64,000 nt of DNA from Candidatus Omnitrophota bacterium. GTDB lineage: Bacteria; Omnitrophota; Gorgyraeia; Zapsychrales; Aceulaceae. The stretch lies in assembly GCA_029564765.1 (NCBI GenBank), contig JAKQPK010000013.1, forward strand, positions 125,753 through 189,752. Reading direction: 5' to 3'. Position 1 is the first letter of the stretch. Each line of letters opens with the position of its first letter. This document shows positions 4,802 through 45,660 of this stretch, in pieces. The position numbers were made by a program, and so were the translations under genes. The notes beneath the pieces were generated by a model, which was not told the origin of the DNA, searched no databases, and was given only the letters and a program-made list of their open reading frames with translations.

Positions 4802-5551
4802 TCAGAAGTTTTCTTTGAGCGTGTGGTTGTAAAGATCCAAAAGTTTTTGGACAAAGGCTTTGTCTTTCAGAAGAGCTTGGATCTTAGGATTAGCGATAAG
4901 GCGCGCGACATCTTTTTCTTCGATCAGCTTTGTGATCCTTTCATCTTGCAGAATGGCCTGTAATTTTTCGTCATAATAGATCGCTTGTATATTTTCATCA
5001 GGCATGGTCCTGTCACCTTGAGCGCCTTCTATGCTCGATGCAGTCGATTGCAATAATAGATCAGGCTGCTCATGTATTTTCTTTAACGCTTGATAGATCG
5101 GATAGCGAGAGAAAATCTTGGATTCAGCTAGCGTGTATGTCCAGGACTGCTCCGTGATCCTTTTTGCTTTTTTAAAGAAAGGCTTATCGACGCGGACCAT
5201 AACGAACAAGAACATGATCGACAGCATCAGCGACAATGACCAGCCAAAGCCGATCATGGCACCTAGTCCGCGGCTCAGTAAGTTGCAACGTTTGGTCTTG
5301 GTGATTATGCGGTTCCAAACAGAAAGGCCGATCCATAAAAGGATCGACAGGCCGGTAGATAGCAAAAAGAATATCTTTAAGCTTTCTAGGATGTCGTAGT
5401 TGCCTCGAAAAGATGTCAGGGCGATCTGGCTGCTGATCAACAGTGCCGCAAATGCCAAAGCAAAGCGCATGATACCCTGCACCCAGCCTAAGCAAGTAAA
5501 GTAAAGGACTGCGAGAATAACGACAATATCCGCTTGGTTCATTATATCCAT
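4802..5551 (-). CDS. CvpA-family membrane protein with a C-terminal soluble extension
   Basis: The N-terminus 'ADIVVILAVLYFTCLGWVQG' and four predicted TM helices resemble the CvpA (colicin V production) fold. The C-terminal ~100 aa are hydrophilic. Confidence 0.45.
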   Translation of the reverse strand: MDIMNQADIVVILAVLYFTCLGWVQGIMRFALAFAALLISSQIALTSFRGNYDILESLKIFFLLSTGLSILLWIGLSVWNRIITKTKRCNLLSRGLGAMIGFGWSLSLMLSIMFLFVMVRVDKPFFKKAKRITEQSWTYTLAESKIFSRYPIYQALKKIHEQPDLLLQSTASSIEGAQGDRTMPDENIQAIYYDEKLQAILQDERITKLIEEKDVARLIANPKIQALLKDKAFVQKLLDLYNHTLKENF

Positions 5552-7243: not shown

Positions 7244-9664
7244 ATGCAATACGGTCATTTTTCTTCAGATAGCACAGAGTACATTATCACTAATCCTCAG
7301 ACGCCTTTCCCGTGGATCAATTATTTAACCAACGATCATTACTGTTCCATCATCTCTCAATGTGCCGGTGGTTATAGTTTTTATCGCGATTGCCGTACCA
7401 ATCGCGTAACACGCTGGGCTCCGGAAAATTATAATTTTGATCGACCCGGTAAATATATCTTTTTGCGCGACGAGAATGGCAAGGCTTGGTCAGCGACCTA
7501 TCAGCCTATCCGCCAAAAACCTACATCCTACGCCTGTCATCACGGATTAGGATATACGACCATTCGCTCAAAGAATTTTGGTGTTTTATCCGAAGTGACC
7601 TATTTTGTTCCCGAGGACGATGATTGTGAGCTTTGGATCGTCACGCTGGAGAATACGACATCCAAGACGAAAAAGCTCGAAGTTTTTCCCTATGTTGAAT
7701 TCTTGCTGGGCGATTATCAGGAAGAGTTGCGCTATCGCAATATCATGAATCTTTATAATCGTATTTGGTTTGATAAAAAGCAAAAAGCGATCTTTGCCAA
7801 GAAAACAGCTCAATGGGCGGGCATGAACATTCAGCCGTTCTCAAGCTTGATCTTTTTTGCTTCTTCGCTGAACCCGCAAGGTGCCTGTACGCAGAAGAGA
7901 GCTTTTTTAGGTCGTTATAATAACGAGGAAAGACCACAAGCCGTCCTAGAAGGCAAATTCCAGGATTTTCATCTTTGCTCTGGCGAAGATGGCATAGGAT
8001 CTTTTAAGCATACTGTTACACTAAAACCTGGCCAGCGCATGGAGTTTACGGTTGTTTTGGGCCAGACAGAGAAATTAAGCACTCTTAAAAAGCGTCTGGT
8101 TAATTATAAAAGCGTTGCCTATGCTAAAAAAGAGCTCACCAAGACTAAAAATATTTGGCGTGAACGTATTGTGGGTAACATTGAGGTTCAAACACCCGAT
8201 AACGAATTCAATACGATCGTTAATGTTTGGCTTAAATATCAGATGTATATTTGTAATATTTGGTCCCGTTCTCCGAGCTTCTTCCATGAAGGATCCGGCG
8301 GGCGAGGCTACCGAGATTCCTGCCAGGATTCTGAATCCATTGTTTCCATCAATTCAGCCTTAACGAGAAAAAAGATCTTGAAGATCGCTTCTTTGATCCG
8401 TCGCGACGGGACATCCGCGCCAGGGTGGTCAGAGACAGTTGGGCCGCACAAATTTCTGCCGAACAAAGATCATCAAGTTTGGCTTACGGCGACTGTTTGT
8501 GCGTATATCAAAGAAACAGGGGATGTGGACATTTTATCGGAGCAGGTTCCGTATATTCGCGATAAGTGGGTTGGCGGCTGGCACGAAGATAAGAATTGGA
8601 AAGGCCCGGCCAAAGAAGATGGCACAGGAACCCTTTTAGAGCACTTAGAAAAGAATCTTAGTTTTTGTTTTTCTGATACAGGTGCGCGAGGATTTCCTCT
8701 GATCGGTCACGCGGATTGGAATGATGCGATCGATGCTGCTGGGATCAAGCATAAAGGGGATAGCGTATGGCTGGCCCAAGCCTTGGTACGGTCTTTGCGT
8801 TTATTCGTTGACCTGTGCGAATTTATTGGCGAAACAGAAAAAGCGCGTAAATATTGTCAGATGGCTGACGTGATGGATAAACGTGTTAACGACAAGGGCT
8901 GGGATGGGGAATGGTATTCGAGAGGGTTCGATGATAACGGCCAGGTTTACGGCAGTCGCAAAGATAAGGAAGGGAAGATCTTTTTAAATACGCAAGCTTG
9001 GGCCGTTCTTTCAGGCGTCGCTAAGGACAAAAGGCTTAAGACGGTATTAAAGAGTGTTGATAAATATCTTAACGGACCTCATGGGCTGGCATTGTTCTAT
9101 CCAGCTTTTACTTCGTGGGTTAAGCGTTTAGGGCGTATTAGCATGTTCTCAGAAGGCACAAAAGAGAATGCGGCTGTTTTTTGTCACGCGGCAACGTTTA
9201 TGGCTGTTGCGTACGCAATGATCGGGCATGGTGATAAGGCTTATGAGGCGATGAAAAAGGTCATGCCTAACGCCCAAAAGGACATGGAGCTTTACAAAAC
9301 AGAACCTTACGCTTACGCTGAATATCTTGTCGGTCCTGGGAACCCCTATCGTTATGGTGAAGGAGCGTTCACATGGATCACCGGTACTGCTGGCTGGAGT
9401 TTTATGGCTGCGACAGAATGGGTCCTAGGTGCCCGTCGAGATTTTAATGGCTTACGTATCGACCCCTCGATCCCTCATCACTGGAAAAAATGCTTCATTC
9501 GCCGTCCATTTCGGGGCAGTGTCTACGAGATCACGATCGAAAACCCCAAAGGCAAAGAACATGGCGTCCAGGCTGTCTTTTTAGACGGAAAAGAGCTTGA
9601 TACTAACTTGCTTCCGGCTCTTAATGACGGCAAAACGCATCGCGTTAGGGTTGTTTTAGGATAA
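7244..9664 (+). CDS. GH94 glycoside phosphorylase (cellobiose/cellodextrin phosphorylase-like)
   Basis: It is collinear along its whole length with the Cellvibrio gilvus cellobiose phosphorylase sequence as I recall it (no search was run). The N-terminus reads 'YGHF...EYIIT.P.TP.PWINYL'. Shared internal blocks include 'FFHEGSGGRGYRDSCQD', the catalytic region 'GFPLIGHADWNDAID', 'PHGLALFYPAF', 'GTKENAAVFCH', 'EPYAYAEY' and the C-terminal 'VYEITIENPKG'. Length is 806 aa. Confidence 0.85.
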   Translation: MQYGHFSSDSTEYIITNPQTPFPWINYLTNDHYCSIISQCAGGYSFYRDCRTNRVTRWAPENYNFDRPGKYIFLRDENGKAWSATYQPIRQKPTSYACHHGLGYTTIRSKNFGVLSEVTYFVPEDDDCELWIVTLENTTSKTKKLEVFPYVEFLLGDYQEELRYRNIMNLYNRIWFDKKQKAIFAKKTAQWAGMNIQPFSSLIFFASSLNPQGACTQKRAFLGRYNNEERPQAVLEGKFQDFHLCSGEDGIGSFKHTVTLKPGQRMEFTVVLGQTEKLSTLKKRLVNYKSVAYAKKELTKTKNIWRERIVGNIEVQTPDNEFNTIVNVWLKYQMYICNIWSRSPSFFHEGSGGRGYRDSCQDSESIVSINSALTRKKILKIASLIRRDGTSAPGWSETVGPHKFLPNKDHQVWLTATVCAYIKETGDVDILSEQVPYIRDKWVGGWHEDKNWKGPAKEDGTGTLLEHLEKNLSFCFSDTGARGFPLIGHADWNDAIDAAGIKHKGDSVWLAQALVRSLRLFVDLCEFIGETEKARKYCQMADVMDKRVNDKGWDGEWYSRGFDDNGQVYGSRKDKEGKIFLNTQAWAVLSGVAKDKRLKTVLKSVDKYLNGPHGLALFYPAFTSWVKRLGRISMFSEGTKENAAVFCHAATFMAVAYAMIGHGDKAYEAMKKVMPNAQKDMELYKTEPYAYAEYLVGPGNPYRYGEGAFTWITGTAGWSFMAATEWVLGARRDFNGLRIDPSIPHHWKKCFIRRPFRGSVYEITIENPKGKEHGVQAVFLDGKELDTNLLPALNDGKTHRVRVVLG

Positions 9665-9699: not shown

Positions 9700-12600
9700 C
9701 TAGAAGTATTTTGTGTAGAACAAGCGGATAATGTGTTGCGTATCCACTGTTGGCGTTGAACTGCCGATATAGGGAGTGCCAGTAGCGTAGCCCGTGTAGA
9801 TCGATGGCCCGACACCGTAAGAAGCAGTGATCTTGCTTTCGTCCCTTAACAGATATTGTGTTTCAAAGAAAAAATTGTGATGGCTCTGAAAATCAATTTC
9901 CCCTCTGTTGTTGCCTAAAGAATCTAGATCAAGCAATTTAGTTAGACTGTTCCATCGGCTCCACGTGTATTTTGTGTACATTTGAAGATTTGCTGTTGGC
10001 ATGTAGCTAACAGCCAATCCGACATGGTTCATGTTGTCATCAATAGGCCCTGCAAATTCATTGGGATTGCGGGTGTAGTCCAGATAAATATTCCATTTGT
10101 CGTTGGGCCTGAAATCAAGTCCTGTGCGGAAGATATTGTGGTATTCGTACGGTGGTAGCGAGAAAAAACCTTGACTATAAAGGAAATTGTAGTCGCTGCG
10201 GTAGATCCTTCCATAAGAACTATTTGTGATCGTGCTTGTGTCATTTAATATGCCGCGTGGGAAGTTATCTGCAGCGACAGTAAAATCATTTGTACGTTCC
10301 CAGATACCGCTCCATGCAACCCAATCTGTGAGCCAGTATTTTAAGCCTAAAGATGTCGTATACAGATTGGCATCTTCATTGTCAGGGATAGCGGCATTGG
10401 CCATTTGACCACCGTCAAGACGTGTCATGTATGGATCAAACCCTCCCGTCGTGCGCGGAACATGATGGGCTAGCAAAAGCATTTTTGTTTCAAATCGCGA
10501 ATTTGGCTGCCAACCCCATTCTGTGCGAGCAACTGTTTCAACATATTTATTCGTGCTGGCTTGATGAACATTGCGGATATCTGCCAGACCTTTTAATTTT
10601 GCATCCCAGAATGAAAGATCTGTCCGCCAATTTGCGACATAGCGGTCATAGTCGATACCGTTACCGATGCGGAAAGCGTTAATATCATCCGAAGAGATCG
10701 TTTGAAAGCTAACGGGATCCCGGAAGGTCAGATGGCGCCCCCAGAATTCATCATCACGCGTTTCTAGGTATGTTGAGAGGCTGGATTGAAATCCTTTGTC
10801 CATACGTGAAAGACGAAGGCGTGTTTTATAAAAAGTAGATTGACCGTCTTCTGGCTTGATCAGGAAATAATCCTGATCAGCGCCTTCAAGATAAGAGGAC
10901 GTTTTCATTAATTGTAGATCATAGGCAGATCCTCGTTGCTGAGAATCGTAAAAATCATTGGTTAGATCTTGCTGTAGGTAGGAGAAAGCGTATTGAGCGG
11001 AAACTTTTGAGCTAGGGCTTATCATGAGGCCTGAATCAACACTAGTAACGATATTATAAGCATCTAAATCTTGATTGATAAATCCAAGATGGGCGTTATC
11101 TGTGATGCCGACATAGAACTGCTCAGAGAAGCTTTGTTTTGCGCGGACACTGGTCGCTAAAGCATCAAAGACATCATAGTCTTGCCAGAGCGTTTTTGGT
11201 GAAGCGACCGTTGCAAGGATCTCTGTATTTTCTTTGCTAAAATTTGCCGAAAAGCCGCGCAACGCTGTTAAGCGATTTCCTTCACTGTCGCGTGTTGCAA
11301 AAGCTAGGTCGTCATTCCATTCGCCTTTTGTAAAATCAACAGGGATAGCGCCGGCATTGACATGTCCTGGCTTCCAGTTCGCCAGCCAAGGGCTCTCTTC
11401 CCACCAGGTTCTGTTGTTGGAAAGGCGCAAAGGATCGTCTGAGGACAACGCCTTATCTTCAAGACCGAAGGGGAAGACTTGAAGCTTGATTGTATCGTTG
11501 GGCTCATAGTCTACCCACAACTCGCGTACAGGCTGAAACCACATGTTAAGTTTTGTATCAGGTAAGAGAAGCTTGTTCCCGAATTTTGTATTCAAGGATG
11601 TGCTGGCAACATGACCATTGACCACTTTTAGCTCGGGGATGGACATAAGGTCGCCAACGTACAGAGTGTCGGCATTCAGGCCCATGGTGTAGGCACTGTT
11701 GCCTGCGTATAGGATCTGTACGTCCGCATAATCTGTCCATGTTCCCAGTGCGCCACTATCACGCAATGTCATCTTTTTTGATTTTCCAACATAGCTCCAG
11801 GGGTCAAGGGCAATGTTCGTGTGAAACGAAAAAGGATTGCCAATAGGCTCGATATCAACATCAAATTTCATTTGGCTGTAAATGGCAGGGTCGTAGGTGT
11901 TGATGCGCTGGTTCAGCTGATCCCCGGAGAGAAGGCGATAATTCTTTTCATTGAGGTCAAAGTTCGCGCGTTTCCAGATAAACTCGCCACCCCCGGATGT
12001 TTCAAAGCCAAAGCCTGCGCGTACTTTACCGTGGACCATGACCTCTTCAGGCTTGGTTTCCTGATACTCTTTTTGCTTAGAAGAAAACGATCGATCATCA
12101 ACAGATTTCTGAGGAGCGATGTCTTCATCGCCGAAGGCTTCAAGCATTTTTGCTTCAGAGACAGTCTCAGCATTGAGCGCGGAAGCAAGGGTCTGACGAA
12201 CTGTCCGAGCAGGAGGATGGCTAGTGACCGCCTGCTGGCCTTTTGTATGCTGAGCGTATTCTTGCTCCAGCTCTTTGATCGCGTGAAATTTGTTGAGTTC
12301 GTCGTTAATAGCTTTGTCGCGGTTTTCAGCATATGATACTGAGGATCGCGCGTTTTCTATGGATTGTCGGCAGAGAGGAAGGTATTTGAGGGCATCAGGA
12401 TTGCCAGGTTCTCTGTTCAAGGCCGCTTCAAATTTCTTTGCGGCTTCAACATATTGTCCTTGGCCGTATAAAAAAAGACCCATTTCAGCATCGATATTGC
12501 TAGCTGTTGCTATGAAGGGAAACATGGAAAAAAGAACGAAAACAAAAAACCCTAACGAATAAATCGTTACCGACTTTATAGAGCGGTTCTTTTGGCTCAA
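9700..12600 (-). CDS. large outer-membrane protein with an N-terminal TPR-like region and a C-terminal aromatic-rich predicted beta-barrel
   Basis: It has a signal peptide and a TPR-like 'YGQGQYVEAAKKFEAALNREPGNPDALKYL'. About 700 aa follow with alternating aromatic/hydrophilic beta-strand character, ending in 'LFYTKYF', the C-terminal aromatic signature of an OM beta-barrel. It is transcribed divergently from the ABC sugar operon. Confidence 0.55.
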   Translation of the reverse strand: MSQKNRSIKSVTIYSLGFFVFVLFSMFPFIATASNIDAEMGLFLYGQGQYVEAAKKFEAALNREPGNPDALKYLPLCRQSIENARSSVSYAENRDKAINDELNKFHAIKELEQEYAQHTKGQQAVTSHPPARTVRQTLASALNAETVSEAKMLEAFGDEDIAPQKSVDDRSFSSKQKEYQETKPEEVMVHGKVRAGFGFETSGGGEFIWKRANFDLNEKNYRLLSGDQLNQRINTYDPAIYSQMKFDVDIEPIGNPFSFHTNIALDPWSYVGKSKKMTLRDSGALGTWTDYADVQILYAGNSAYTMGLNADTLYVGDLMSIPELKVVNGHVASTSLNTKFGNKLLLPDTKLNMWFQPVRELWVDYEPNDTIKLQVFPFGLEDKALSSDDPLRLSNNRTWWEESPWLANWKPGHVNAGAIPVDFTKGEWNDDLAFATRDSEGNRLTALRGFSANFSKENTEILATVASPKTLWQDYDVFDALATSVRAKQSFSEQFYVGITDNAHLGFINQDLDAYNIVTSVDSGLMISPSSKVSAQYAFSYLQQDLTNDFYDSQQRGSAYDLQLMKTSSYLEGADQDYFLIKPEDGQSTFYKTRLRLSRMDKGFQSSLSTYLETRDDEFWGRHLTFRDPVSFQTISSDDINAFRIGNGIDYDRYVANWRTDLSFWDAKLKGLADIRNVHQASTNKYVETVARTEWGWQPNSRFETKMLLLAHHVPRTTGGFDPYMTRLDGGQMANAAIPDNEDANLYTTSLGLKYWLTDWVAWSGIWERTNDFTVAADNFPRGILNDTSTITNSSYGRIYRSDYNFLYSQGFFSLPPYEYHNIFRTGLDFRPNDKWNIYLDYTRNPNEFAGPIDDNMNHVGLAVSYMPTANLQMYTKYTWSRWNSLTKLLDLDSLGNNRGEIDFQSHHNFFFETQYLLRDESKITASYGVGPSIYTGYATGTPYIGSSTPTVDTQHIIRLFYTKYF

Positions 12601-19273: not shown

Positions 19274-19906
19274 ATGCATAAAGTCGGCCATCTCTTTTTG
19301 ATCTTTTTCCTGGTTGCTCTTTTTGGTTGCGATCAAAATATTAAACCTCAGGACGGAGCGCGAGATAGCGGGAAACAAGGCGTTCATTTCGACCCTTTTC
19401 CTATTTACACAAACGTTGGCTCGCGAGACAATCATTATGTTCCATCAGGATTTATGCCTGACGGGCAATGTATCAGTCTTGATAATCGTTGGCAAGAGGG
19501 TTGCCATAGCGATCCTACCTGTATCAAGATTTCTTATGACGTTATCTGTTCTCAGAAAGGGGCTAGATGGGCTGGTATTTACTGGCAGAACCCCGCACAT
19601 AACTGGGGTGGCCGTAAAGGTGGCTTTAACCTGACAGGCGCTAAGAAATTGACGTTCTGGGCAAAAGGCGAAAAAGGTGGCGAGCGTATTGAAGAATTTA
19701 AGATGGGTGGTATCTCAGGAGATTATCCTGATACCGATACAGCCTTTATTGGACCTGTTATCCTAACGCCGGAATGGAAGCAATACAGCATTGATCTGCG
19801 AGGCAAGGACCTGTCTTACGTAAGTGGAGGTTTTTGCTTTACAACCAACGTTGAGGTCAATCCTGAGCCGATCGTATTCTTTCTAGACGATATGCGTTAC
19901 GAATAA
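19274..19906 (+). CDS. hypothetical secreted lipoprotein
   Basis: Lipobox 'LFGCDQ' is present. The body is Trp/Gly-rich ('GARWAGIYWQNPAHNWGGRKGG') and may be a carbohydrate-binding-like beta domain. It is the last gene before a terminator. Confidence 0.45.
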   Translation: MHKVGHLFLIFFLVALFGCDQNIKPQDGARDSGKQGVHFDPFPIYTNVGSRDNHYVPSGFMPDGQCISLDNRWQEGCHSDPTCIKISYDVICSQKGARWAGIYWQNPAHNWGGRKGGFNLTGAKKLTFWAKGEKGGERIEEFKMGGISGDYPDTDTAFIGPVILTPEWKQYSIDLRGKDLSYVSGGFCFTTNVEVNPEPIVFFLDDMRYE

Positions 19907-25307: not shown

Positions 25308-25805
25308 GTGAAAGCATTACTTAGCGATCAGAAAGGAAGGATACAATCGATGGCCAATCAAGTTTTTGGTTATCAGCTGTTGCTCGATCTTTACGGATGC
25401 AAAGAGGGAACATGTGACGATCTTTCATTATGCTATCAGTTTCTCGATGAGATCGTTGAGAAGTTGGGCATGGAAAAACAGTCACCGCCAAGCATTTTTC
25501 GAAGCGATGCTACACGTTTTCCCGATAAGGCCGGTCTTTCGGGTTGGGCGCCTTTGATCGAAAGTTCGATCGTTATCCATACGCTATCCCCTAAGAATTA
25601 TATTTCTGTTGATGTCTATTGTTGCAAGGCCTTTGATTCTGAGGTAGCGCGTGAGATGTGCCGTAAATTTTTTAATCCTTCCAAGATCGATGATCAGTAT
25701 ATCGAGCGCGGCTTGGATTATTACAAAACAGATAGCACGTATCATACGATGACCGTTACCAGAAATACCAGCGAAGAACCTGAGGTCGTTCTAAGCCGTA
25801 AATAG
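25308..25805 (+). CDS. pyruvoyl-dependent decarboxylase of the S-adenosylmethionine decarboxylase (SpeH/SpeD class 1) fold
   Basis: 'VFGYQLLLDLYGC' and the 'ESSIVIHTLSP..YISVDVYCC' block match the AdoMetDC proenzyme self-cleavage region (ES|S...IHTWPE...VDVFTCG). The true start may be the Met at 25350. At 165 aa it is longer than typical SpeH. Confidence 0.55.
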   Translation: MKALLSDQKGRIQSMANQVFGYQLLLDLYGCKEGTCDDLSLCYQFLDEIVEKLGMEKQSPPSIFRSDATRFPDKAGLSGWAPLIESSIVIHTLSPKNYISVDVYCCKAFDSEVAREMCRKFFNPSKIDDQYIERGLDYYKTDSTYHTMTVTRNTSEEPEVVLSRK

Positions 25806-26222: not shown

Positions 26223-26831
26223 ATGTGTTGTTCTGGATCAAAGATCGTTTTTGTTGTTGCCTGGTGTTCTTTATTTGCCGCAGGCCTATTTCTTTTTTAT
26301 TTTCTTAAAAGCCGTCATCATTTTATTTTATTGCAAGCCCAAGCGATCAAGCGCGGCGGCATGGTGGGCTCTCACGCGCTGATCTTTCCTAAGCTTATTT
26401 TTCACTGGCAGAATTATCAGATCACATCGTTTATTACCTTACCGGCAAAAACAAATCCAACTTTTGTCGTTGTGTCTGTCGCTGTACATCCCATCAAGCC
26501 GTGTGGTTTTGTTGTTGAACGTAGAAATCCTTGGATCCCAGGCCTGAACATTGTTTTTGGATCAAAGAAAATACCCACAGGATCTCTTATTTTTGATCAA
26601 GAGTTCACTGTTTTTAGAAGAGGCGACGAAGATCTCGGATCAATCCTTGATCCGCAGGTCCAAGAGATGCTGTTGACTATCAAAGCACAGAACCCTTTGA
26701 TCAGCCTTGAGAAGAATGTCCTGACCATCCGTGCGCCACACTCAGCGCACAACGCGCAAGAGATCGACGCGCTGATCGATCTTACGATCGTTTTCCTTCA
26801 GCGATTGAAAGACCTGTCTTTTATTGTTTAG
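26223..26831 (+). CDS. hypothetical membrane-anchored protein
   Basis: N-terminal TM helix. No recognisable domain. Confidence 0.3.
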   Translation: MCCSGSKIVFVVAWCSLFAAGLFLFYFLKSRHHFILLQAQAIKRGGMVGSHALIFPKLIFHWQNYQITSFITLPAKTNPTFVVVSVAVHPIKPCGFVVERRNPWIPGLNIVFGSKKIPTGSLIFDQEFTVFRRGDEDLGSILDPQVQEMLLTIKAQNPLISLEKNVLTIRAPHSAHNAQEIDALIDLTIVFLQRLKDLSFIV

Positions 26832-34818: not shown

Positions 34819-35235
34819 ATGTCAACATTTCTTTGGGAGCCCAGTTTTGAAGTTAATATTAAGATTATTGATGAGCAACATAAGAAATTAGTGGAAACCG
34901 TTAACATCCTTTATGATTCGATCGTTTCAGGCGAAAGCTCAAAAGTTTTATTTACCATTTTTGAGCGTATGGTGGAATACGTAACGTTTCATTTTGAAAC
35001 TGAAGAAGAGCTAATGGTTAGGCTAAGCTTTCCAGGCTTCCAAGAACACAAGCATGAGCACGAGGAATGCACAAAAAAAGTTCTAGAATTTAAACATAAA
35101 TTCGAGAATGGAGAAAAAACGATCTCCATTGAATTAATTTCTTTTTTAGTTGATTGGATTCACCACCACCTTTTGTGTGTAGATATGAAGTACGCTGCAT
35201 TTTTTAAAGAAAAAGGAATTACTCCAAGAGCGTAG
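34819..35235 (+). CDS. bacteriohemerythrin-like protein
   Basis: 'WEPSFEVNIKIIDEQHKKLVETVN' is present. The His/Glu ligand pattern (H..HF..EE, HEHEEC, H.HL) matches hemerythrin four-helix-bundle iron ligands. An RBS 'GGAGAAG' precedes the ATG. Confidence 0.75.
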   Translation: MSTFLWEPSFEVNIKIIDEQHKKLVETVNILYDSIVSGESSKVLFTIFERMVEYVTFHFETEEELMVRLSFPGFQEHKHEHEECTKKVLEFKHKFENGEKTISIELISFLVDWIHHHLLCVDMKYAAFFKEKGITPRA

Positions 35236-35297
35236 CGTTTCATCGTCGTTGCGAACAAGATCGTGAATATTGTGGCGTGATCAAGGAAGCCCCGTGG
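35234..35297 (+). repeat. direct repeat copy 2 (pseudo-3'-end of leuS immediately after the hemerythrin stop)
   Basis: See copy 1. In frame it would encode '...[14 protein letters not shown]'. Confidence 0.85.
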
Positions 35298-35372
35298 TCG
35301 CTGGCGTTCCCTGGGGTAAATTCGCTCAGCAAACTTATGTTCGCTGACGCTCCATAAGATTGGACCTCATTT

Positions 35373-36659
35373 ATGAAATTTATCGCTGATCTCCACATCC
35401 ACTCTAAATACTCCCGCGCGACGAGCAAAGACCTCACTCCTGAACAACTATATTTCTGGGCGCAACTCAAAGGCATAACCGTCGTTGGCACAGGGGATTT
35501 TTTGCATCCGGGTTGGCTAAAAGAATTAAAGACAAAGCTTGAGCCGGCAGAAGAAGGGCTTTTTCAGCTCAAAAAAGAATACGCAAGCGAGATAGATATG
35601 CAGGTCCCGGCTTCTTGCAAAGCTCCCGTGCGTTTTATTTTAAGCGCAGAAGTCGCCAATATTTATAAACGTTTAGATAAGGTGCGCAAAGTTCATAATG
35701 TTATTTTCGCGCCCAGCTTTGATGTCGCGCAGAATTTACAAAAACGTATTGAAAAGATTGGCAACATCCGCTCTGACGGACGTCCTATTTTAGGATTAGA
35801 TTCGCGAGATCTCTTGGAAATTACCCTCGAATCACATCCGCAATCTTTTTTAGTGCCGGCACACATTTGGACACCGTGGTTTTCCATGCTTGGCTCCAAA
35901 GGGGGTTTTGATAAGATGGAAGATTGCTATGGAGATCTCACGAAATATATTTTCGCGTTGGAAACAGGACTTTCATCAGACCCTCTGATGAATTGGCGCC
36001 TAAGCCAGCTGGACCAATGTGTCTTGATTTCAAATTCTGATGCGCATTCAGCGCCCAAGCTTGGCCGCGAAGCGAATATTTTTGACACAGAACTATCGTA
36101 TGCGGGGATCTTTCTAGGCTTATCCCAAGATAGCAACAAAGGATTCTTAGGCACGATCGAATTTTTTCCTGAGGAAGGGAAGTATCATTACGATGGCCAT
36201 CGGGATTGCGATGTGTGTTTAACTCCCAAAGAAACAATTAAAAATAAAGGGCTGTGCCCTAAATGCGGTAAGCCTGTGACGGTGGGGGTCATGGCGCGGG
36301 TGGAAGAACTGGCGGATCGCCCTGAAGGCCAGAAGGGTGCGCGCTCGCGTCCTTATAAGAGTTTGATCCAGCTTGAAACAATTATTGCCGAAGGCAAGGG
36401 CGTCGGGCCGGCATCCAAGCCTGTTCAGGAACTTTTTTACCGCATGCTGTCAAAGATAGGCAATGAACTCAGTATTTTAAATGAGGTTCCTTTAGAGGCA
36501 ATTAAAAAAACTGGTGGCGCGCTTTTGGCCGAAGGTATTTCTCGCATGCGCCAAGGCAAAGTTTCCATCGCTCCCGGTTATGATGGCGAGTACGGCGTGA
36601 TCAGTTTGTTTTCTGATAAAGAGCGAGCGACAAAAAAAGAACAGCTGACGTTGTTTTAA
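35373..36659 (+). CDS. PHP-domain protein of the endonuclease Q (EndoQ / TIGR00375-like) family
   Basis: The N-terminal 'MKFIADLHIHSKYSRATSKDLTPEQL...KGITVVGTGDFLHP' matches the PHP metal-binding start of EndoQ. The C-terminal 'CPKCGKPVTVG' is the EndoQ zinc-finger. Confidence 0.65.
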   Translation: MKFIADLHIHSKYSRATSKDLTPEQLYFWAQLKGITVVGTGDFLHPGWLKELKTKLEPAEEGLFQLKKEYASEIDMQVPASCKAPVRFILSAEVANIYKRLDKVRKVHNVIFAPSFDVAQNLQKRIEKIGNIRSDGRPILGLDSRDLLEITLESHPQSFLVPAHIWTPWFSMLGSKGGFDKMEDCYGDLTKYIFALETGLSSDPLMNWRLSQLDQCVLISNSDAHSAPKLGREANIFDTELSYAGIFLGLSQDSNKGFLGTIEFFPEEGKYHYDGHRDCDVCLTPKETIKNKGLCPKCGKPVTVGVMARVEELADRPEGQKGARSRPYKSLIQLETIIAEGKGVGPASKPVQELFYRMLSKIGNELSILNEVPLEAIKKTGGALLAEGISRMRQGKVSIAPGYDGEYGVISLFSDKERATKKEQLTLF

Positions 36660-40537: not shown

Positions 40538-42811
40538 ATGAAGCAAAAATACCTTTATCTGTTGGCTGTGATCATTTTTGTTGTTGCCGCGTCCATTAGC
40601 TATCGCGCAAATGAACGGGCCGCGGGTTTTCACGTATCAGGGTCTTCCTCTCAGGTCTTAAGCCGCGCGCAAGAATTCTTTCCTCAAGCACAGTTCATCA
40701 CGTCCGCGGACAGTCCTGATCAGTGGGTGCTGTGCCTGGACGCGGACAGAAAGCCTGTGGGCAAGATCCTTTTGACCAAACCGTTCGTGAATGAGCAGGG
40801 CTACAGCGGCGCTGTGCATTTGCTGATCGCCGCGGACCTAAAGGAAAAGATCCTCGGCGTTCAATTGATCGAGCACACGGAAACAGAGGATGTGATCCGT
40901 TTTCTAGATGAGAAAGAATTCTTTCGCGCTTGGAATGGTATTTCTGTCCAGGAGGCTTTGCGCAAGGATGTGGACGCCGTATCGGGGGCGACGCTGACGA
41001 CGCAGGCGATCGCGCGCGCGTTTAAGAAACGCTTGGCCCTGCTTACGCCGGCGGCACCGATTGTGTCTGCGCCGCCTATTTCTTTTCGCGTGTTAGGGGC
41101 CAATCTGCTGGCTTTGGCGGCGCTAGCTTTTTCTTTGTTCGTTTTTTTCCGTCGCAGGGAGAGCCGCATGTGGAGAAATCTTTCGCTGGCAGTCAATGTT
41201 GTTATTCTGGGGTTCATCACGGCGAAGATGCTTTCTTTCGCGCTTTTTTATGGATGGATCAGATCAGGCATTAACTTTGCGGACGCGATCTTTGTCATTT
41301 GGGTGGCCGCGATAGCGTCTATTTTTATTTACAACAAAAATATTTACTGCCAATGCCTTTGTCCGTTCGGCGCCGCGCAGCAGCTCCTAGGGCAGCTGAC
41401 GCGCCAAAAGTTTTCTTTACGTTTATTGCCGGTCTTTCAGTGGATAGGGTTTGTTTATTTTTCCATGATCTTAGGTCTTTTGTTGGCGTCCGCTCCTTTG
41501 CGGCTTGAATCAACGGAGCCGTTCGCCGCGTTCTTATGGTACAACTTTTTATCGCCAGCGGGGATCATGTTCGGGTTGTGGCTTTTTGTTTCTATTTTCT
41601 GCGGGCGGTTTTGGTGCAACTTTTTATGTCCCACCGGAAGGGCCTTGAATGGATTTTTGGCAAGGACAGGACAAAATCGTGTGTTGTCCATAATCGTCTT
41701 TGTTGTGTGTGTCGCGTCCGCCGTGACCTTGACCCGTTGGCCGCGCGCGGCTACTGTCGCGCCGCAAGAGGCAGCGGCGCCTACCCAGCAGGCAGAAATA
41801 CCTTTTCATATGGCCGCATTTTTTCGATCTTTAGCGGATAATATTGTGCAATGCACATTATGCCCAAGGCAATGTACGCTGAAACCTAACGAAGCAGGAT
41901 TTTGCCGGGCGCGTAAGAACATCCAGGGCAATCTGTATGCCTTGACCTATGGCCAGCCTGTGGCGGTCCATGTGGATCCGGTCGAGAAAAAACCTTTTTC
42001 CCACGTTTATCCCGGGACAAAGTCTTTTTCGATCGCGACAGCCGGATGTAATCTGCGTTGTAAATTCTGCCAGAATTGGGAGATCTCTCAGCTGGATGCT
42101 GAGAAGGTCAAGGCAGAATTTGTCGCTCCAGAACAGATCGTGGCCAAAGCCAAAGAGACGGGTTCCAAGACCATCGCGTTCACCTATACGGAACCTGTGA
42201 TCTTTTATGAATACATGATGGATATCGCGAAAGCCGCGAAAGAACAAGGAGTCGCCTGCGTGATGCATTCAGCTGGGTTCGTGAACGAAGAACCTTTGCG
42301 CGCGTTGGCCCAATACCTTACAGCCGCCAATATTGACCTTAAAGGATTTGATGAAAAATTTTACACAACGTTCACCAGCGGTGACCTGAACGTTGTATTG
42401 CGCACGCTGAAAGTGCTCAAAGAGGAAGGTGTGTGGGTAGAGATCACGACCTTGCTTATCCCCGGCGCTAACGATAGCGATCAGGAGATCCGTAAGCTTT
42501 GCGCTTGGGTCAGGGATCATCTTGGGCCAGAAACACCGATACATTTCTCTAGGTTCTATCCGATGTATAAACTTACCAACCTATCCCCGACACCGGTAGC
42601 GACGCTTTTGCGGGCGCAGGATATTGCCAAGAGCGAAGGCCTGCAGTTCGTCTATATCGGTAATGTTCCCAGTCAAACAGGAGAGAATACCGTTTGTCCG
42701 CATTGTGGTAAACTGCTGATCAAGCGTAAAGGGTATCATGTCCTTGAGGATCATTTGATCGACGGGAAATGCCCGGGTTGCGGCCATGAGATCCCAGGGG
42801 TCTGGCGCTAA
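40538..42811 (+). CDS. tripartite fusion: FMN-binding domain, NosR/NapH-like CxxxCP polytopic membrane domain, and AmmeMemoRadiSam/PflX-type radical SAM enzyme
   Basis: The start is taken at ATG 40538, with the RBS 'AAGGAGAG' 5 nt upstream. After a signal anchor, 'DAVSGATLTTQAIARA' is the RnfG/NqrC/NosR FMN-attachment motif. About six TM helices carry 'CQCLCPFG' and 'CNFLCPTG' (CX3CP). The C-terminal 330 aa carry 'CTLCPRQC...GFCRAR', the radical SAM 'CNLRCKFC' (CX3CX2C) with 'QNWEIS', and a C-terminal Zn ribbon 'CPHCG...CPGCG'. No stop codon or frameshift interrupts the 757 codons. Confidence 0.65.
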   Translation: MKQKYLYLLAVIIFVVAASISYRANERAAGFHVSGSSSQVLSRAQEFFPQAQFITSADSPDQWVLCLDADRKPVGKILLTKPFVNEQGYSGAVHLLIAADLKEKILGVQLIEHTETEDVIRFLDEKEFFRAWNGISVQEALRKDVDAVSGATLTTQAIARAFKKRLALLTPAAPIVSAPPISFRVLGANLLALAALAFSLFVFFRRRESRMWRNLSLAVNVVILGFITAKMLSFALFYGWIRSGINFADAIFVIWVAAIASIFIYNKNIYCQCLCPFGAAQQLLGQLTRQKFSLRLLPVFQWIGFVYFSMILGLLLASAPLRLESTEPFAAFLWYNFLSPAGIMFGLWLFVSIFCGRFWCNFLCPTGRALNGFLARTGQNRVLSIIVFVVCVASAVTLTRWPRAATVAPQEAAAPTQQAEIPFHMAAFFRSLADNIVQCTLCPRQCTLKPNEAGFCRARKNIQGNLYALTYGQPVAVHVDPVEKKPFSHVYPGTKSFSIATAGCNLRCKFCQNWEISQLDAEKVKAEFVAPEQIVAKAKETGSKTIAFTYTEPVIFYEYMMDIAKAAKEQGVACVMHSAGFVNEEPLRALAQYLTAANIDLKGFDEKFYTTFTSGDLNVVLRTLKVLKEEGVWVEITTLLIPGANDSDQEIRKLCAWVRDHLGPETPIHFSRFYPMYKLTNLSPTPVATLLRAQDIAKSEGLQFVYIGNVPSQTGENTVCPHCGKLLIKRKGYHVLEDHLIDGKCPGCGHEIPGVWR

Positions 42812-44910
42812 AGGATGTCTTTAAGCCCGAGAACGATGATCACAGCGAAGACAATAAGACAGGCCAGGTTGATGCCTAAGAACGGGATTAGGATCATCGA
42901 AGCAAGAAGAGTTGCCGCGCAAGCGCCTAAAAGGTCCGCGGCGTATAAAGTCGGTGCGATCTTTTCAACCGCAACCGTGTTGTCCTGACGCCACAAAGCG
43001 CTTAAGAGAGGGTAGCCGAATCCGGTCAAAAGCCCATTTTCAAAAGCAAGTACCATCCAGGCCACTTGATGCCACGCGTTGTGCCCACGATAGTTAGCCC
43101 AGAAAAATATTTCAAGGAAAAAGATGAACCACACAAGAAAAAGCCCCGCGACATAATGTTTTGTGACCGCGCGCGATGAGATGGCGCGGCTTAAGAAAAA
43201 GCTACCCGCGGCCAATCCTGCCATGAACACTCCTACCAGGATCCCCAGCTTCCAGAAAAGCCCTCCGAAAAGCAGTTGAAAGCAAAAAAAGATGACGGCA
43301 CTGGCGCTCATGGACAAAAACCCCATGACCGCCGCCTGACTTTTCAGCCAGAGCGTTGGACGTCCTAGAAAAACAAAGGCCCCCAACCCGATAAAGGCGA
43401 GGCTCACAAGAAAGATGATTGGTTTTAAGGCTAGAGGATCGATGCGCGCGTGCGCGGTAAACCGTGCCTGGTCCATCAAGGTGTAATAAAGAAAACCATA
43501 AGGCATTAGGTCCGTGTTAATGCCTGATGGGAAAGAGAGCATGCGCTGGATATAAGCCGCGCGCGTTGGATCGAGCATGTCGCGCAGATGAAAGACTGTT
43601 ATAAACTGAGCCGAGATCTGGCCGCGCTCAAAACGATTGAGGATTTCTTGCGCCGTAATCTCTTGCTGGGAAGCAACTACGATCATAGCGTCGCCAGGAA
43701 TAAGGAACACCTGAGGGAAGGCGCGCTGTAGCGATCGAATGATACAGGCATTAAAGTCACGGATCACAGGGCTTAGGATATCCGCTTTGGACGGGATCGT
43801 AAAGATAAGGTTTCCTTGCGGCTTAAGGCGCTTTTTCGCTTCTTGAAAGAATTCAACAGTGTAAAAACGGTTAAAGATAAGTGCTGAAGGCGCGGGGATG
43901 TTGAGCACGATCAGATCGTAGAGCGCTGGATCGTTGTTCAAAAAAGAGCGCGGATCCTGATCTTTAAAAGTGATGTTCTTGCCAGGCGCGTAGAATGAAG
44001 GCAGGTGGCGTGGCCGGGGATTGCTGTCGACCGCTGTCACTGCCAAGAGAGGATATTTTTCAAGTTCTTGCACCTGTGATCTTAAGCATGGCCCAATCCA
44101 GAGCATGTCGCGCGCGCCTGCGTGCGTGGCTAGGGCTGTATGGATAAAGACCTCGTGAGTTTCTTTGTCTTCGCTGGTCGCGATCAAACTCCCGTTGACA
44201 TACAAGGAACGAGCGTGGCCGTCATCTGTCAGGATGATAGGGCCCTGCGCCGAGCCTTGCGTGAAGACGATAGATGAGGCGGCAAATTCTTTTTGTAGGA
44301 TCGCCGGAAAGCTGTTGGTCAAAGAAATGGACAAAAGCATTAATGCCGCGGCTATGACCGCCTTGGGGCGTCGGGATATTTTTAAGGCCGGGACCATCAA
44401 TAAAGGTAAGGCCGTAAAGGATAGTGGATTTTGATAAACGTAAAGCCCTAGCGTAAAAACGATCCCTCCTAAAAAGACCCCCAGCGCTTCGCACGCGAAA
44501 AGATAGCCCAGAGAGTGATCTTTGTCCGCGAGCCGTTGGGCATGATGGGCACTTAGGTGGGAGAACGCGTAACCGCTGACCGCGCCTGTCGGCCCAAGGA
44601 CAACGACCGCGGCAAATAAAGAAAAGACTCCGCCGACACTTTCATAATAGGGAATGCTAAAGAGGATCTTCAAGGTGTGCGCCAGAATAATGCCGATACC
44701 AAAGGATAGAGGAAGGGCGATCATCAGTCCTGTATCAGAAAGTATTTGCCTGCGCTTGCGTGTGAGGGATGCTAGTGCGCAGAACAAAGCCCAGATCCCA
44801 ACGCCGGCGATGAGGGCGAGCTCGTTCTTGGCAATGGAAAATGTGAATTCTCGTACCAAGACGAGTTGAAAAATACAACTGACAAAACCAAGAATGATGA
44901 ATATAATCAT
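42808..44910 (-). CDS. spermidine-synthase-like (aminopropyltransferase fold) protein fused to N- and C-terminal polytopic membrane domains
   Basis: The central 'YDLIVLNIPAPSALIFNRFYTVEFFQEAKKRLKPQGNL' matches the SpeE methyltransferase-fold core (D.I..D...P......L.T.EF.......L...G). It is flanked by about 12 TM helices. Confidence 0.55.
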   Translation of the reverse strand: MIIFIILGFVSCIFQLVLVREFTFSIAKNELALIAGVGIWALFCALASLTRKRRQILSDTGLMIALPLSFGIGIILAHTLKILFSIPYYESVGGVFSLFAAVVVLGPTGAVSGYAFSHLSAHHAQRLADKDHSLGYLFACEALGVFLGGIVFTLGLYVYQNPLSFTALPLLMVPALKISRRPKAVIAAALMLLSISLTNSFPAILQKEFAASSIVFTQGSAQGPIILTDDGHARSLYVNGSLIATSEDKETHEVFIHTALATHAGARDMLWIGPCLRSQVQELEKYPLLAVTAVDSNPRPRHLPSFYAPGKNITFKDQDPRSFLNNDPALYDLIVLNIPAPSALIFNRFYTVEFFQEAKKRLKPQGNLIFTIPSKADILSPVIRDFNACIIRSLQRAFPQVFLIPGDAMIVVASQQEITAQEILNRFERGQISAQFITVFHLRDMLDPTRAAYIQRMLSFPSGINTDLMPYGFLYYTLMDQARFTAHARIDPLALKPIIFLVSLAFIGLGAFVFLGRPTLWLKSQAAVMGFLSMSASAVIFFCFQLLFGGLFWKLGILVGVFMAGLAAGSFFLSRAISSRAVTKHYVAGLFLVWFIFFLEIFFWANYRGHNAWHQVAWMVLAFENGLLTGFGYPLLSALWRQDNTVAVEKIAPTLYAADLLGACAATLLASMILIPFLGINLACLIVFAVIIVLGLKDIL

Positions 44911-45018
44911 AAGGAGAAGGTAAAAGTAAAGGTCGATAGTCGGTAGTATTTAGCATATAGTCAAACTAACGACTAAATACCAACGACTATATACTGTTTT
45001 TTATATCTTACTTAATCC

Positions 45019-45660
45019 ATGTCCGAAAATCTATATTATTTATTTGTTAGCGGTATGATCCTGAGTTCTGGGCCGTGCTTGGCTTCCTGCGCGCCGTTTT
45101 TGGCCGCGTATACTGCCGGCCGTCGGTCAGGGGTGCGGGATTCGTTCCTTTCCTATTTTGTTTTTTCTTTTTTTAAGATCTTAGCGTATCTTGTCCTAGC
45201 GGGGATCTGCGCGTTGGGTTCATCGCTGATCCGCGTCGAGCAGTTGTTGCCTTATCGGTCGTGGATCTATGGGGCGCTGGGCATTTTGATCATGGGTATC
45301 GGCATCGCCATGCTCGTTGACCGCAAGGAGAACAATGCTTTTTGCGCATGCTTGTGCCGTCAACATGCAACGAACATCGCGCTCTTTGGTTTTTTGATCG
45401 GCCTTGCGCCGTGCTTACCGCTTGTGGGGATCCTCAATTATGTGATGGTTATTTCTAAAACACCGATGGACGCGTTCTTGTACGTATTTGTTTTTGGGCT
45501 GGGGACGGTCCTTTCTCCTTTGATGATCGTGATGGTCGTTTCGGCAAAGGTGTCCTCGATGCTGGCGCGCTTTGCGATGCTCAAGAGCCTGTTGCGCGTG
45601 TTCTGCGCGATCGTGTTGATCTTCTTGGGGCTCATAACGGTCACGCGGGTGATCGGGTAA
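45019..45660 (+). CDS. polytopic membrane protein with paired cysteines in TM helices (CcdA/DsbD-like thiol-disulfide transporter, tentative)
   Basis: 'SSGPCLASCAPF' lies in TM1 and 'LAPCLPLVG' in a later TM helix, reminiscent of CcdA 'SPC..P' motifs. The family assignment is uncertain. Confidence 0.35.
   Translation: MSENLYYLFVSGMILSSGPCLASCAPFLAAYTAGRRSGVRDSFLSYFVFSFFKILAYLVLAGICALGSSLIRVEQLLPYRSWIYGALGILIMGIGIAMLVDRKENNAFCACLCRQHATNIALFGFLIGLAPCLPLVGILNYVMVISKTPMDAFLYVFVFGLGTVLSPLMIVMVVSAKVSSMLARFAMLKSLLRVFCAIVLIFLGLITVTRVIG

Follow-up and report, generated by a model that had tools for sequence, protein, structure and literature searches.

A fusion of a NapH-like flavin module with an AmmeMemoRadiSam-type radical SAM enzyme in Omnitrophota, and its predicted place outside the cytoplasm

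Results

A three-part fusion gene

The stretch of DNA analysed here, which we call the window, comprises 64,000 nucleotides of a Candidatus Omnitrophota genome (GenBank assembly GCA_029564765.1, contig JAKQPK010000013.1, positions 125,753 to 189,752), and our subject is a single gene on its forward strand, at 40538–42811, that joins a membrane-bound flavin module to a radical S-adenosylmethionine (SAM) enzyme, together with the genes that accompany it and its relatives. From its N-terminus, the encoded protein consists of a signal anchor, an FMN_bind domain, a NapH-like membrane module, a further transmembrane (TM) helix (H7) and a radical SAM (rSAM) module of the AmmeMemoRadiSam type (AmrS). 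The original prediction, made from the sequence alone, had proposed an uninterrupted open reading frame (ORF) of 757 codons, and our ORF call bears this out: translation could begin at ATG 40538 or at an alternative TTG at 40490, and since an AAGGAG Shine-Dalgarno sequence lies 7 nt upstream of the ATG and every homolog begins with the same methionine, we take the product to be 757 amino acids (aa) long. Pfam and NCBIfam recovered the three parts that had been expected, namely FMN_bind at aa 88–165 (44 bits), two copies of Fer4_5 (44.7 bits) and Radical_SAM at aa 500–654 (85 bits), with model TIGR04337 (AmmeMemoSam_rS) covering aa 427–756 at 397.3 bits against a cutoff of 220. The NosR and RnfG models of NCBIfam match the protein weakly, and the NosR equivalog model NF046105 gives 53 bits against a cutoff of 1000, which does not assign the protein to NosR. 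All of the motifs singled out in the original prediction (DAVSGAT, CQCLCP, CNFLCP, CTLCPRQC...FC and CPHC...CPGC) are in place.

The first hydrophobic segment (H1, aa 6–24, nt 40553–40609), preceded by MKQK, was recognised as an N-terminal signal anchor from its hydrophobicity, its lysine/arginine (K/R) count and a helix in the AlphaFold2 (AF2) model. The FMN_bind domain that follows (40799–41032; PF04205) aligns to RnfG and to PDB 8p2b, is modelled with a pLDDT of ~85–90 and is predicted to be extracytoplasmic. Within it lies an ApbE-type flavinylation motif, DAVSGAT (D146...T152, 40973–40993), aligned to the SGAT of RnfG/8p2b; D146, A151 and T152 are invariant in eight homologs, and T152 is the predicted site of FMN attachment. 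The NapH/NosR-like membrane module (H2–H6, aa 183–365, 41084–41632) contains two Fer4_5 repeats (PF12801) and, as in the NapH-like/NosR family, two CX3CP motifs that each follow a TM hairpin. The first, CQCLCP (aa 271–276, 41348–41365), and the second, CNFLCP (aa 360–365, 41615–41632), are situated in K/R-rich loops predicted to be cytoplasmic, with C271, C275 and P276, and C360, C364 and P365, invariant. Pfam detected no Fer4-type ferredoxin domain after the second motif, the position where H7 and the rSAM module stand. Relatives of the NapH-like and rSAM modules were collected by domain-wise profile searches, and the closest relatives of the NapH-like module (P0012, P0013 and P0283–P0294, the last being FMN_bind+Fer4_5 proteins of ~400 aa) likewise have no dicluster ferredoxin domain.

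H7 (aa 380–400, 41675–41737) is kept in all eight homologs and was modelled by AF2 as a 21-residue helix. Beyond it, a disordered linker (aa 401–426, 41738–41815; pLDDT <50 for aa 402–419), whose length varies in alignment A1, leads into the rSAM module (aa 427–756, 41816–42805; pLDDT 90–98), which is predicted to be extracytoplasmic. This module opens with a cysteine cluster, CxxCPxxC-x9-C (C439, C442, C446 and C456, 41852–41905), that is a putative auxiliary Fe-S or metal site, and ends with a zinc-ribbon or rubredoxin-like CxxC...CxxC (C720, C723, C745 and C748, 42695–42781), both invariant in A1. Between them, the invariant radical SAM motif CX3CX2C (CNLRCKFC; C504, C508 and C511, 42047–42070) aligns to the cluster motif of the pyruvate formate-lyase (PFL) activating enzyme (PFL-AE), and E552, within FTYTEP, aligns with that enzyme's SAM-binding GGE motif. 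In the numbering of alignment A3, C20/C23/C37, C301 and C326 are invariant, and C304 and C329 are conserved in at least 90% of sequences. PDB searches by sequence and by fold returned solely RnfG-type FMN domains and PFL-activase (nearest to the rSAM module, 3cb8, TM-score 0.79), and no NapH-like or AmrS structure. Because its core is PFL-activase-like and its cluster and SAM-binding motifs are intact, the module should really use SAM, and by its TIGR04337 score and its motifs it is a bona fide AmmeMemoRadiSam-type enzyme. The AF2 model, built from a 131-sequence alignment, has a mean pLDDT of 80.7, with 95–98 in the rSAM module, and a pTM of 0.56, so that the placement of the domains relative to one another is unreliable.

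The same three-part architecture is found in seven 90%-identity clusters (P0001–P0006 and P0008) and in the more distant P0014 (44%). At least 10 independent full-length copies, mostly on Omnitrophota contigs, are known at 44–57% identity. The homologs P0002–P0006, P0008 and P0014, from independent samples, align through the junction without a break, the cysteines and motifs of all three modules are invariant across the copies, and gene order around the fusion is kept in L001 and in L015/L016, as it is between P0002 and P0008, which come from different samples. A gene of this kind could also come from a chimeric assembly or from an overlooked stop or frameshift, or be a decaying fusion that has no function, and a related Omnitrophota metagenome-assembled genome (MAG) does carry a broken copy (L047:9707–12419), interrupted by one frameshift in an A7 run (ATGAAAAAAGTTG) that lies just within the beginning of the AmrS domain; an indel in this homopolymer of the MAG, not the presence of two genes, is the probable cause of that break. 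Because independent contigs repeat the fusion, assembly chimerism and a missed stop are excluded, and with conserved gene order, invariant motifs and a confidently modelled rSAM module also standing against it, an artefact or pseudogene is extremely improbable.

SpeE-like and DsbD_2-like genes accompany the fusion elsewhere (see below). The fusion is also rare: an exhaustive phmmer search of 1.84 billion representatives recovered the full architecture in just two 50%-identity clusters. Full-text literature searches, which did not cover the main comparative study of Memo-AMMECR1-rSAM contexts (Burroughs et al. 2019), so that a prior mention of exported variants or of the partners is possible, yielded no paper on the fusion, on exported rSAM enzymes or on AmmeMemoRadiSam function, in keeping with the earlier suggestion that the architecture had not been described.

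Topology of the fusion protein

Analysis of hydrophobicity and of charge distribution by the positive-inside rule gave seven hydrophobic helices, rather than the approximately six first estimated: H1, H2 (aa 183–205), H3 (214–237), H4 (244–266), H5 (297–321), H6 (337–356) and H7, the last lying after the second CX3CP motif and ahead of the rSAM module. K/R residues are concentrated in the loops between H2 and H3, between H4 and H5 (containing the first CX3CP motif) and between H6 and H7 (containing the second); the even-numbered loops hold 12 K/R residues versus 4 in the odd-numbered ones, and the bias has the same direction in all six sequences in which seven helices were detected. On the strength of the positive-inside rule and of homology with NapH and NosR, we placed the CX3CP loops in the cytoplasm, an arrangement that would put both FMN_bind and the rSAM module on the outer side of the membrane. 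FMN_bind is thus predicted to be extracytosolic behind its N-terminal anchor, and H7, which is strongly hydrophobic and flanked by basic residues, would bring the chain back to the FMN side.

H7 resembles the signal sequences of stand-alone enzymes. It aligns with the leaders of AmrS proteins from L017, L018, L021 and L032 and with the twin-arginine translocation (Tat) signal of that from L053, the closest match being L017, whose rSAM module is 64% identical (KILSKVFVLILCSAVAVTIL versus RVLSIIVFVVCVASAVTLT in the window). Since the alignment is position-for-position, we infer that the fusion arose when an FMN_bind-NapH gene was joined to an AmrS gene with a leader of its own, in which case H7 would once have been the signal anchor of a stand-alone AmrS. 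Two other proteins, P0018 and P0025, consist of a signal anchor, FMN_bind and an rSAM module, and as they have no membrane module in between, their FMN_bind and rSAM parts should share one side of the membrane.

According to the original prediction, the fusion wires the rSAM cluster directly to a membrane and periplasmic flavin input. A built-in electron route is still the most sensible reading, but the CX3CP cysteines do not appear to be placed to wire directly into the rSAM cluster, because the conserved H7 separates them and they would lie on opposite faces of the membrane. The module predicted to be on the rSAM module's side, outside, is FMN_bind.

Export signals in AmrS relatives

Leaders are widespread among relatives of the rSAM module. 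In the 120 best profile matches, which are 50–61% identical to the window module and many of which come from Omnitrophota, WOR-3 and Stahlbacteria, 109 proteins have a hydrophobic or Tat leader, and the leaderless remainder are mostly N-truncated; about 25 of the top 150 representatives carry RRxFL Tat motifs, and others a lipobox or an anchor. We then scored 80 species-level AmrS loci, from >15 phyla, for leaders and neighbours. Tat signals (RR or KR) were assigned at ~54 loci and Sec-type leaders or anchors at 18, while six proteins have no extension and two are unclear. All relatives tested pass the TIGR04337 cutoff, and P0030 and L081 also reach that of the curated Tat model TIGR01409. AmrS had been described as normally soluble and stand-alone, a description that fails in this branch, where ~90% of the closest relatives have Tat, Sec or lipoprotein leaders and are accordingly predicted to reside outside the cytoplasm. 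The gene is a genuine, lineage-restricted (Omnitrophota-type) fusion, and on balance it probably belongs to an exported branch of the AmmeMemoRadiSam system.

The leader-bearing relatives take several forms. Memo+rSAM and Memo+AMMECR1+rSAM fusions (P0225, P0267 and P0282; P0017 and P0037) have an N-terminal lipoprotein signal, signal peptide or TM anchor, suggesting that all three domains of the system would leave the cytoplasm on one polypeptide in some lineages. In Desulfobacterota (L028, L030, L034 and L045), a divergent rSAM paralog of ~350 aa (E-value of 1e-8 to 1e-10 with the AmrS profile hidden Markov model (HMM)) adjoins the leader-bearing AmrS. The Tat-like motif at L028, L029, L030 and L045 is an unusual TKREFL/TKRGFL (KR), and that at L034 an ordinary RR (LTRRNFL). 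At L008:301–5138, the Tat-signal AmrS P0030 has two TPR proteins and a DUF362 protein as flanking neighbours and does not lie beside Memo/AMMECR1, SpeE-like or DsbD_2 genes.

Neighbouring genes and partners

Immediately downstream of the fusion, on the reverse strand, lies a gene for a polytopic, SpeE-like membrane protein of 700 aa (42808–44910) with a central, degenerate SpeE-fold domain (PF01564, 16.1 versus a cutoff of 22.9). The two genes converge, and the TAA of the fusion and the TAG of its neighbour overlap as CTAA (42808–42811). Across a 108-nt spacer (44911–45018), the SpeE-like gene diverges from a forward-strand gene for a 213-aa, 6-TM DsbD_2/CcdA-like protein (45019–45660; PF13386, 64.6 bits versus a cutoff of 24.9). 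The same convergent/divergent layout of the three genes is present in L001, L015, L017 and L018, and SpeE-like homologs adjoin the rSAM gene in L001, L007, L013 and L015–L018. L018, also from Omnitrophota and 68% identical in the rSAM module, has the window arrangement plus a Memo-AMMECR1 gene, and its DsbD_2 homolog also matches DsbD_TM (PF02683).

In the window protein, IGPCLRS replaces the GGGEG loop that binds decarboxylated SAM (dcSAM) and NIPAPS replaces DLTDP, with the fold kept; SpeE-like copies from Tat lineages retain the glycine loop and have NLP(D/E)P, without the first aspartate, at the catalytic site. A true spermidine synthase was rejected as an identity for the neighbour, given a PF01564 score below cutoff and the lost catalytic motifs, and a manual reading of its central domain as periplasmic was dropped, as the TM count under the positive-inside rule flips between 6 and 7. 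The DsbD_2-like protein has CLASC (CxxxC) in TM1 and a later APCLP, a pattern that is repeated in P0015, P0019 and P0033, where DsbD_2 is fused to rSAM; in L006/L013 it is fused to Fer4_5. The modules are shuffled among loci: DsbD_2, FMN_bind, Fer4_5 and rSAM as one 1055-aa protein; a [DsbD_2-Fer4_5] gene overlapping an [FMN_bind-rSAM] gene; [DsbD_2-rSAM] ahead of a 753-aa SpeE-like membrane protein; and, in the window, [FMN_bind-Fer4_5-rSAM], the convergent SpeE-like gene and then DsbD_2.

Partners at the 80 loci were counted with a purpose-built HMM for each module, representative calls being confirmed with Pfam. A SpeE-like membrane protein is encoded near AmrS at 38 loci (within 3 kb at 34), a fused Memo-AMMECR1 gene at 37 (with signal peptides on 37 of 38 proteins, many of them with lipoboxes), a DsbD_2-like gene at 14 and a NapH/FMN gene at 8. 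DsbD_2 is confined to loci with Sec-type leaders (14/18, versus 0/54 with Tat signals; Fisher p = 1e-11, a test that overstates independence because the DsbD_2 loci are phylogenetically clustered). Near a Tat-type AmrS in L036, a true NapH-type protein with two Fer4_5 repeats and a dicluster ferredoxin is encoded 0.5 kb upstream (8573–9457), so the association with an electron conduit is not limited to the fused Omnitrophota form. The SpeE-like and DsbD_2-like proteins are conserved, sometimes fused, partners in the same system. The original prediction had listed comEC and a membrane-embedded aminopropyltransferase-like protein as neighbours, of which the second is the conserved SpeE-like partner.

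ComEC belongs to a block upstream of the fusion (hemerythrin, PHP-like (MJ0043_C), ComEA and ComEC; window 34819–36659) that is conserved in related Omnitrophota contigs (L001 and L016). In the window and in L016, but not in L001, a UvrD gene separates the PHP-like gene from ComEA. Because a thiamine operon separates ComEC from the trio of fusion, SpeE-like and DsbD_2 genes in L015/L016, ComEC reflects synteny only; ComEC/ComEA were rejected as functional partners, and the hemerythrin-to-ComEC block is probably unrelated to the rSAM system. Elsewhere in the window, a gene 15 kb upstream of the fusion (25308–25805) encodes an S-adenosylmethionine decarboxylase-like protein (PF02675), so the organism may make dcSAM, and several sizeable ORFs, one of 966 aa, have no Pfam match (9700–12600 and 4802–5551 on the reverse strand, 19274–19906 and 26223–26831 on the forward strand).

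Discussion

We judge it reasonably probable that the fusion provides an extracytoplasmic radical SAM enzyme with electrons from across the membrane. H1 would keep the N-terminus inside and FMN_bind outside, H2–H6 would hold the four invariant CX3CP cysteines, which could together bind one Fe-S cluster, at the cytoplasmic face, and H7 would lead the chain out again, leaving the rSAM module beside FMN_bind. Electrons would enter at the cytoplasmic or membrane face, from Fe-S on the CX3CP motifs or from a quinol donor, and pass across the membrane to covalent FMN at T152, an outward movement that the membrane potential would assist. The FMN, tethered and acting much as flavodoxin does, could then pass single electrons to the Fe-S clusters of the rSAM module, followed by SAM cleavage, and the fusion would in this way supply its own reductant line to an enzyme without access to cytoplasmic flavodoxin or ferredoxin. 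The DsbD_2-like protein probably serves maturation after export, as a source of metal or by maintaining the cysteines that ligate the clusters in their reduced state. For the 14-TM SpeE-fold protein, the probable task is to handle a membrane-associated substrate or some adenosyl compound. The fusion and its recurrence, the shuffled modules, the leaders and the co-occurring partners are observed; which side each module faces, which way electrons flow and what the partners do are inferences.

Several observations weigh against this proposal. We know of no radical SAM enzyme that works outside the cytoplasm, and both SAM and Fe-S assembly are cytoplasmic. Our topology derives from hydrophobicity and positive-inside analysis, not from a trained predictor, and at a pTM of 0.56 the AF2 model offers no usable FMN-to-cluster geometry. 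No twin-arginine motif precedes H7, the window having QNR-VLSII and the other fusions KK, KR, RK or a single R, so that the C-terminal domain would have to cross unfolded via Sec/YidC, with no known means of acquiring its clusters afterwards; Tat-dependent insertion of H7, as in Rieske proteins with dual targeting, is likewise not supported in the absence of RR. The 64-kb window encodes neither Memo nor AMMECR1 (tblastn, Pfam), so that the context typical of AmmeMemoRadiSam is lacking locally, and neither ApbE nor Tat genes (Pfam). The original prediction had already noted the absence of amrA and amrB nearby, which holds for the whole window; it does not extend to related loci, which encode exported Memo-AMMECR1 fusions. 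The association of DsbD_2 with Sec-type leaders is weakened by the phylogenetic clustering described above. Finally, at three Nitrospirota-type loci (L075, L077 and L092) a leaderless AmrS of 322–324 aa lies beside a lipoprotein Memo-AMMECR1, implying either that the partners are on opposite sides of the membrane or that AmrS acts before export.

Some of these points would be accommodated if the rSAM module were instead cytoplasmic and received electrons directly from CX3CP-bound Fe-S at the inner surface, with the periplasmic FMN as an entry or exit point and H7 peripheral or re-entrant. Such an arrangement would agree with the cytoplasmic location of all characterised rSAM enzymes, of SAM and of Fe-S assembly, with the missing RR motif and with NosR/NapH, in which the redox domain after the second CX3CP motif is cytoplasmic (the NapH of L036 has such a domain). 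It is difficult to reconcile with H7, a conserved, hydrophobic helix of 21 residues with basic flanks that aligns with the export signals of stand-alone relatives, with Tat or Sec leaders on ~90% of the closest relatives, and with P0018/P0025, in which an N-terminal anchor is the only membrane segment and FMN_bind and rSAM fall on one side. We therefore regard a cytoplasmic rSAM module as unlikely.

A second alternative retains the extracytoplasmic location and assigns the FMN/NapH module to another redox step of the same pathway, acting on a product radical, a Memo metal centre or the substrate, with the rSAM cluster reduced by other means. Flavinylated NapH-like modules serve diverse periplasmic oxidoreductases (PMC8238504). 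Moreover, 72 of the 80 AmrS loci have no NapH/FMN gene nearby, indicating that the module is not universally needed. This explanation nonetheless leaves the covalent joining of FMN_bind to rSAM in three architectures (P0018/P0025, P0015 and the window type) unaccounted for, the locus offers no other candidate reductant, and an FMN protein, flavodoxin, is the classical reductant of radical SAM enzymes. We consider it distinctly improbable.

The radical SAM enzymes, one of the largest superfamilies of enzymes, have been treated as strictly cytoplasmic, since they need SAM, Fe-S assembly and low-potential reductants. Fusion to an extracytosolic conduit, together with export signals in ~90% of a clade, suggests that radical chemistry takes place in the cell envelope. 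The result also bears on the old puzzle of AMMECR1, Memo and AmrS and of their substrate, a system with homologs in eukaryotes that are linked to disease: one large bacterial AmrS branch is predicted to lie at the outer face of the membrane, with two new recurrent partners, the SpeE-fold 14-TM protein and the DsbD_2-like protein. The Memo-AMMECR1-rSAM system has reportedly been linked to nucleotide-base and isoprenoid modification. If the predicted sidedness is right, the clade would be the first extracytoplasmic radical SAM system, and routes for SAM supply outside the cytoplasm and, in Sec-type lineages, for Fe-S insertion after export would be needed. We put at about even chances the broader proposal that this locus and the larger leader-bearing AmrS clade together represent such a system, exported by Tat in most phyla and by a Sec-type route in Omnitrophota, with lipoprotein Memo-AMMECR1, low-potential electrons from NapH-like/FMN modules and DsbD_2-like support.

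Comparison with known systems

The C-terminal 330 aa of the fusion share with AmmeMemoRadiSam rSAM proteins (AmrS, TIGR04337, PflX-like) all three cysteine groups, the glutamate equivalent to GGE and the PFL-activase-like fold, and loci related to the fusion encode Memo and AMMECR1. The fusion differs in that its rSAM module stands behind a 7-TM FMN/NapH module and is predicted to be extracytoplasmic, and in that its local partners are the SpeE-fold membrane protein and the DsbD_2-like protein rather than Memo and AMMECR1. The N-terminal half resembles NosR/NapH/PceC-type proteins (PF12801 + PF04205; PMC8238504) in its signal anchor, its FMN_bind domain with a flavinylation motif, its five further TM helices and its two CX3CP motifs on K/R-rich loops, whereas it has no cytoplasmic dicluster ferredoxin, one extra TM helix and, as its client, a radical SAM domain instead of a respiratory reductase. 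The combination of NapH-like and FMN_bind domains is an established extracytosolic electron-transfer module, and radical SAM clients go unmentioned in the survey of flavinylated NapH-like proteins by Meheust et al. 2021 (PMC8238504).

In function, the closest parallel would be activation by flavodoxin, as with Escherichia coli FldA and PFL-AE or BioB, where an FMN protein delivers single electrons to a SAM-cleaving [4Fe-4S] cluster; the FMN domain of the fusion has the RnfG/NqrC fold, unrelated to that of flavodoxin, and a predicted covalent flavin, is tethered in cis and would be fed across the membrane. The neighbouring DsbD_2 protein recalls CcdA/DsbD of cytochrome c maturation, with its six TM helices, cysteines in TM1 and later Cys-Pro, and it accompanies only clients with Sec-type leaders, as CcdA does Sec-exported apocytochromes. 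Here, in contrast, it would serve an Fe-S/rSAM protein, its cysteine motif is CxxxC, and the proposed role is thiol reduction or metal transport. Finally, the actinobacterial Rieske proteins with dual Sec/Tat targeting are also multi-TM proteins whose last helix takes a cofactor domain to the outer face; an RR precedes that helix in the Rieske proteins, whereas the fusion family has only KK, KR, RK or a single R.

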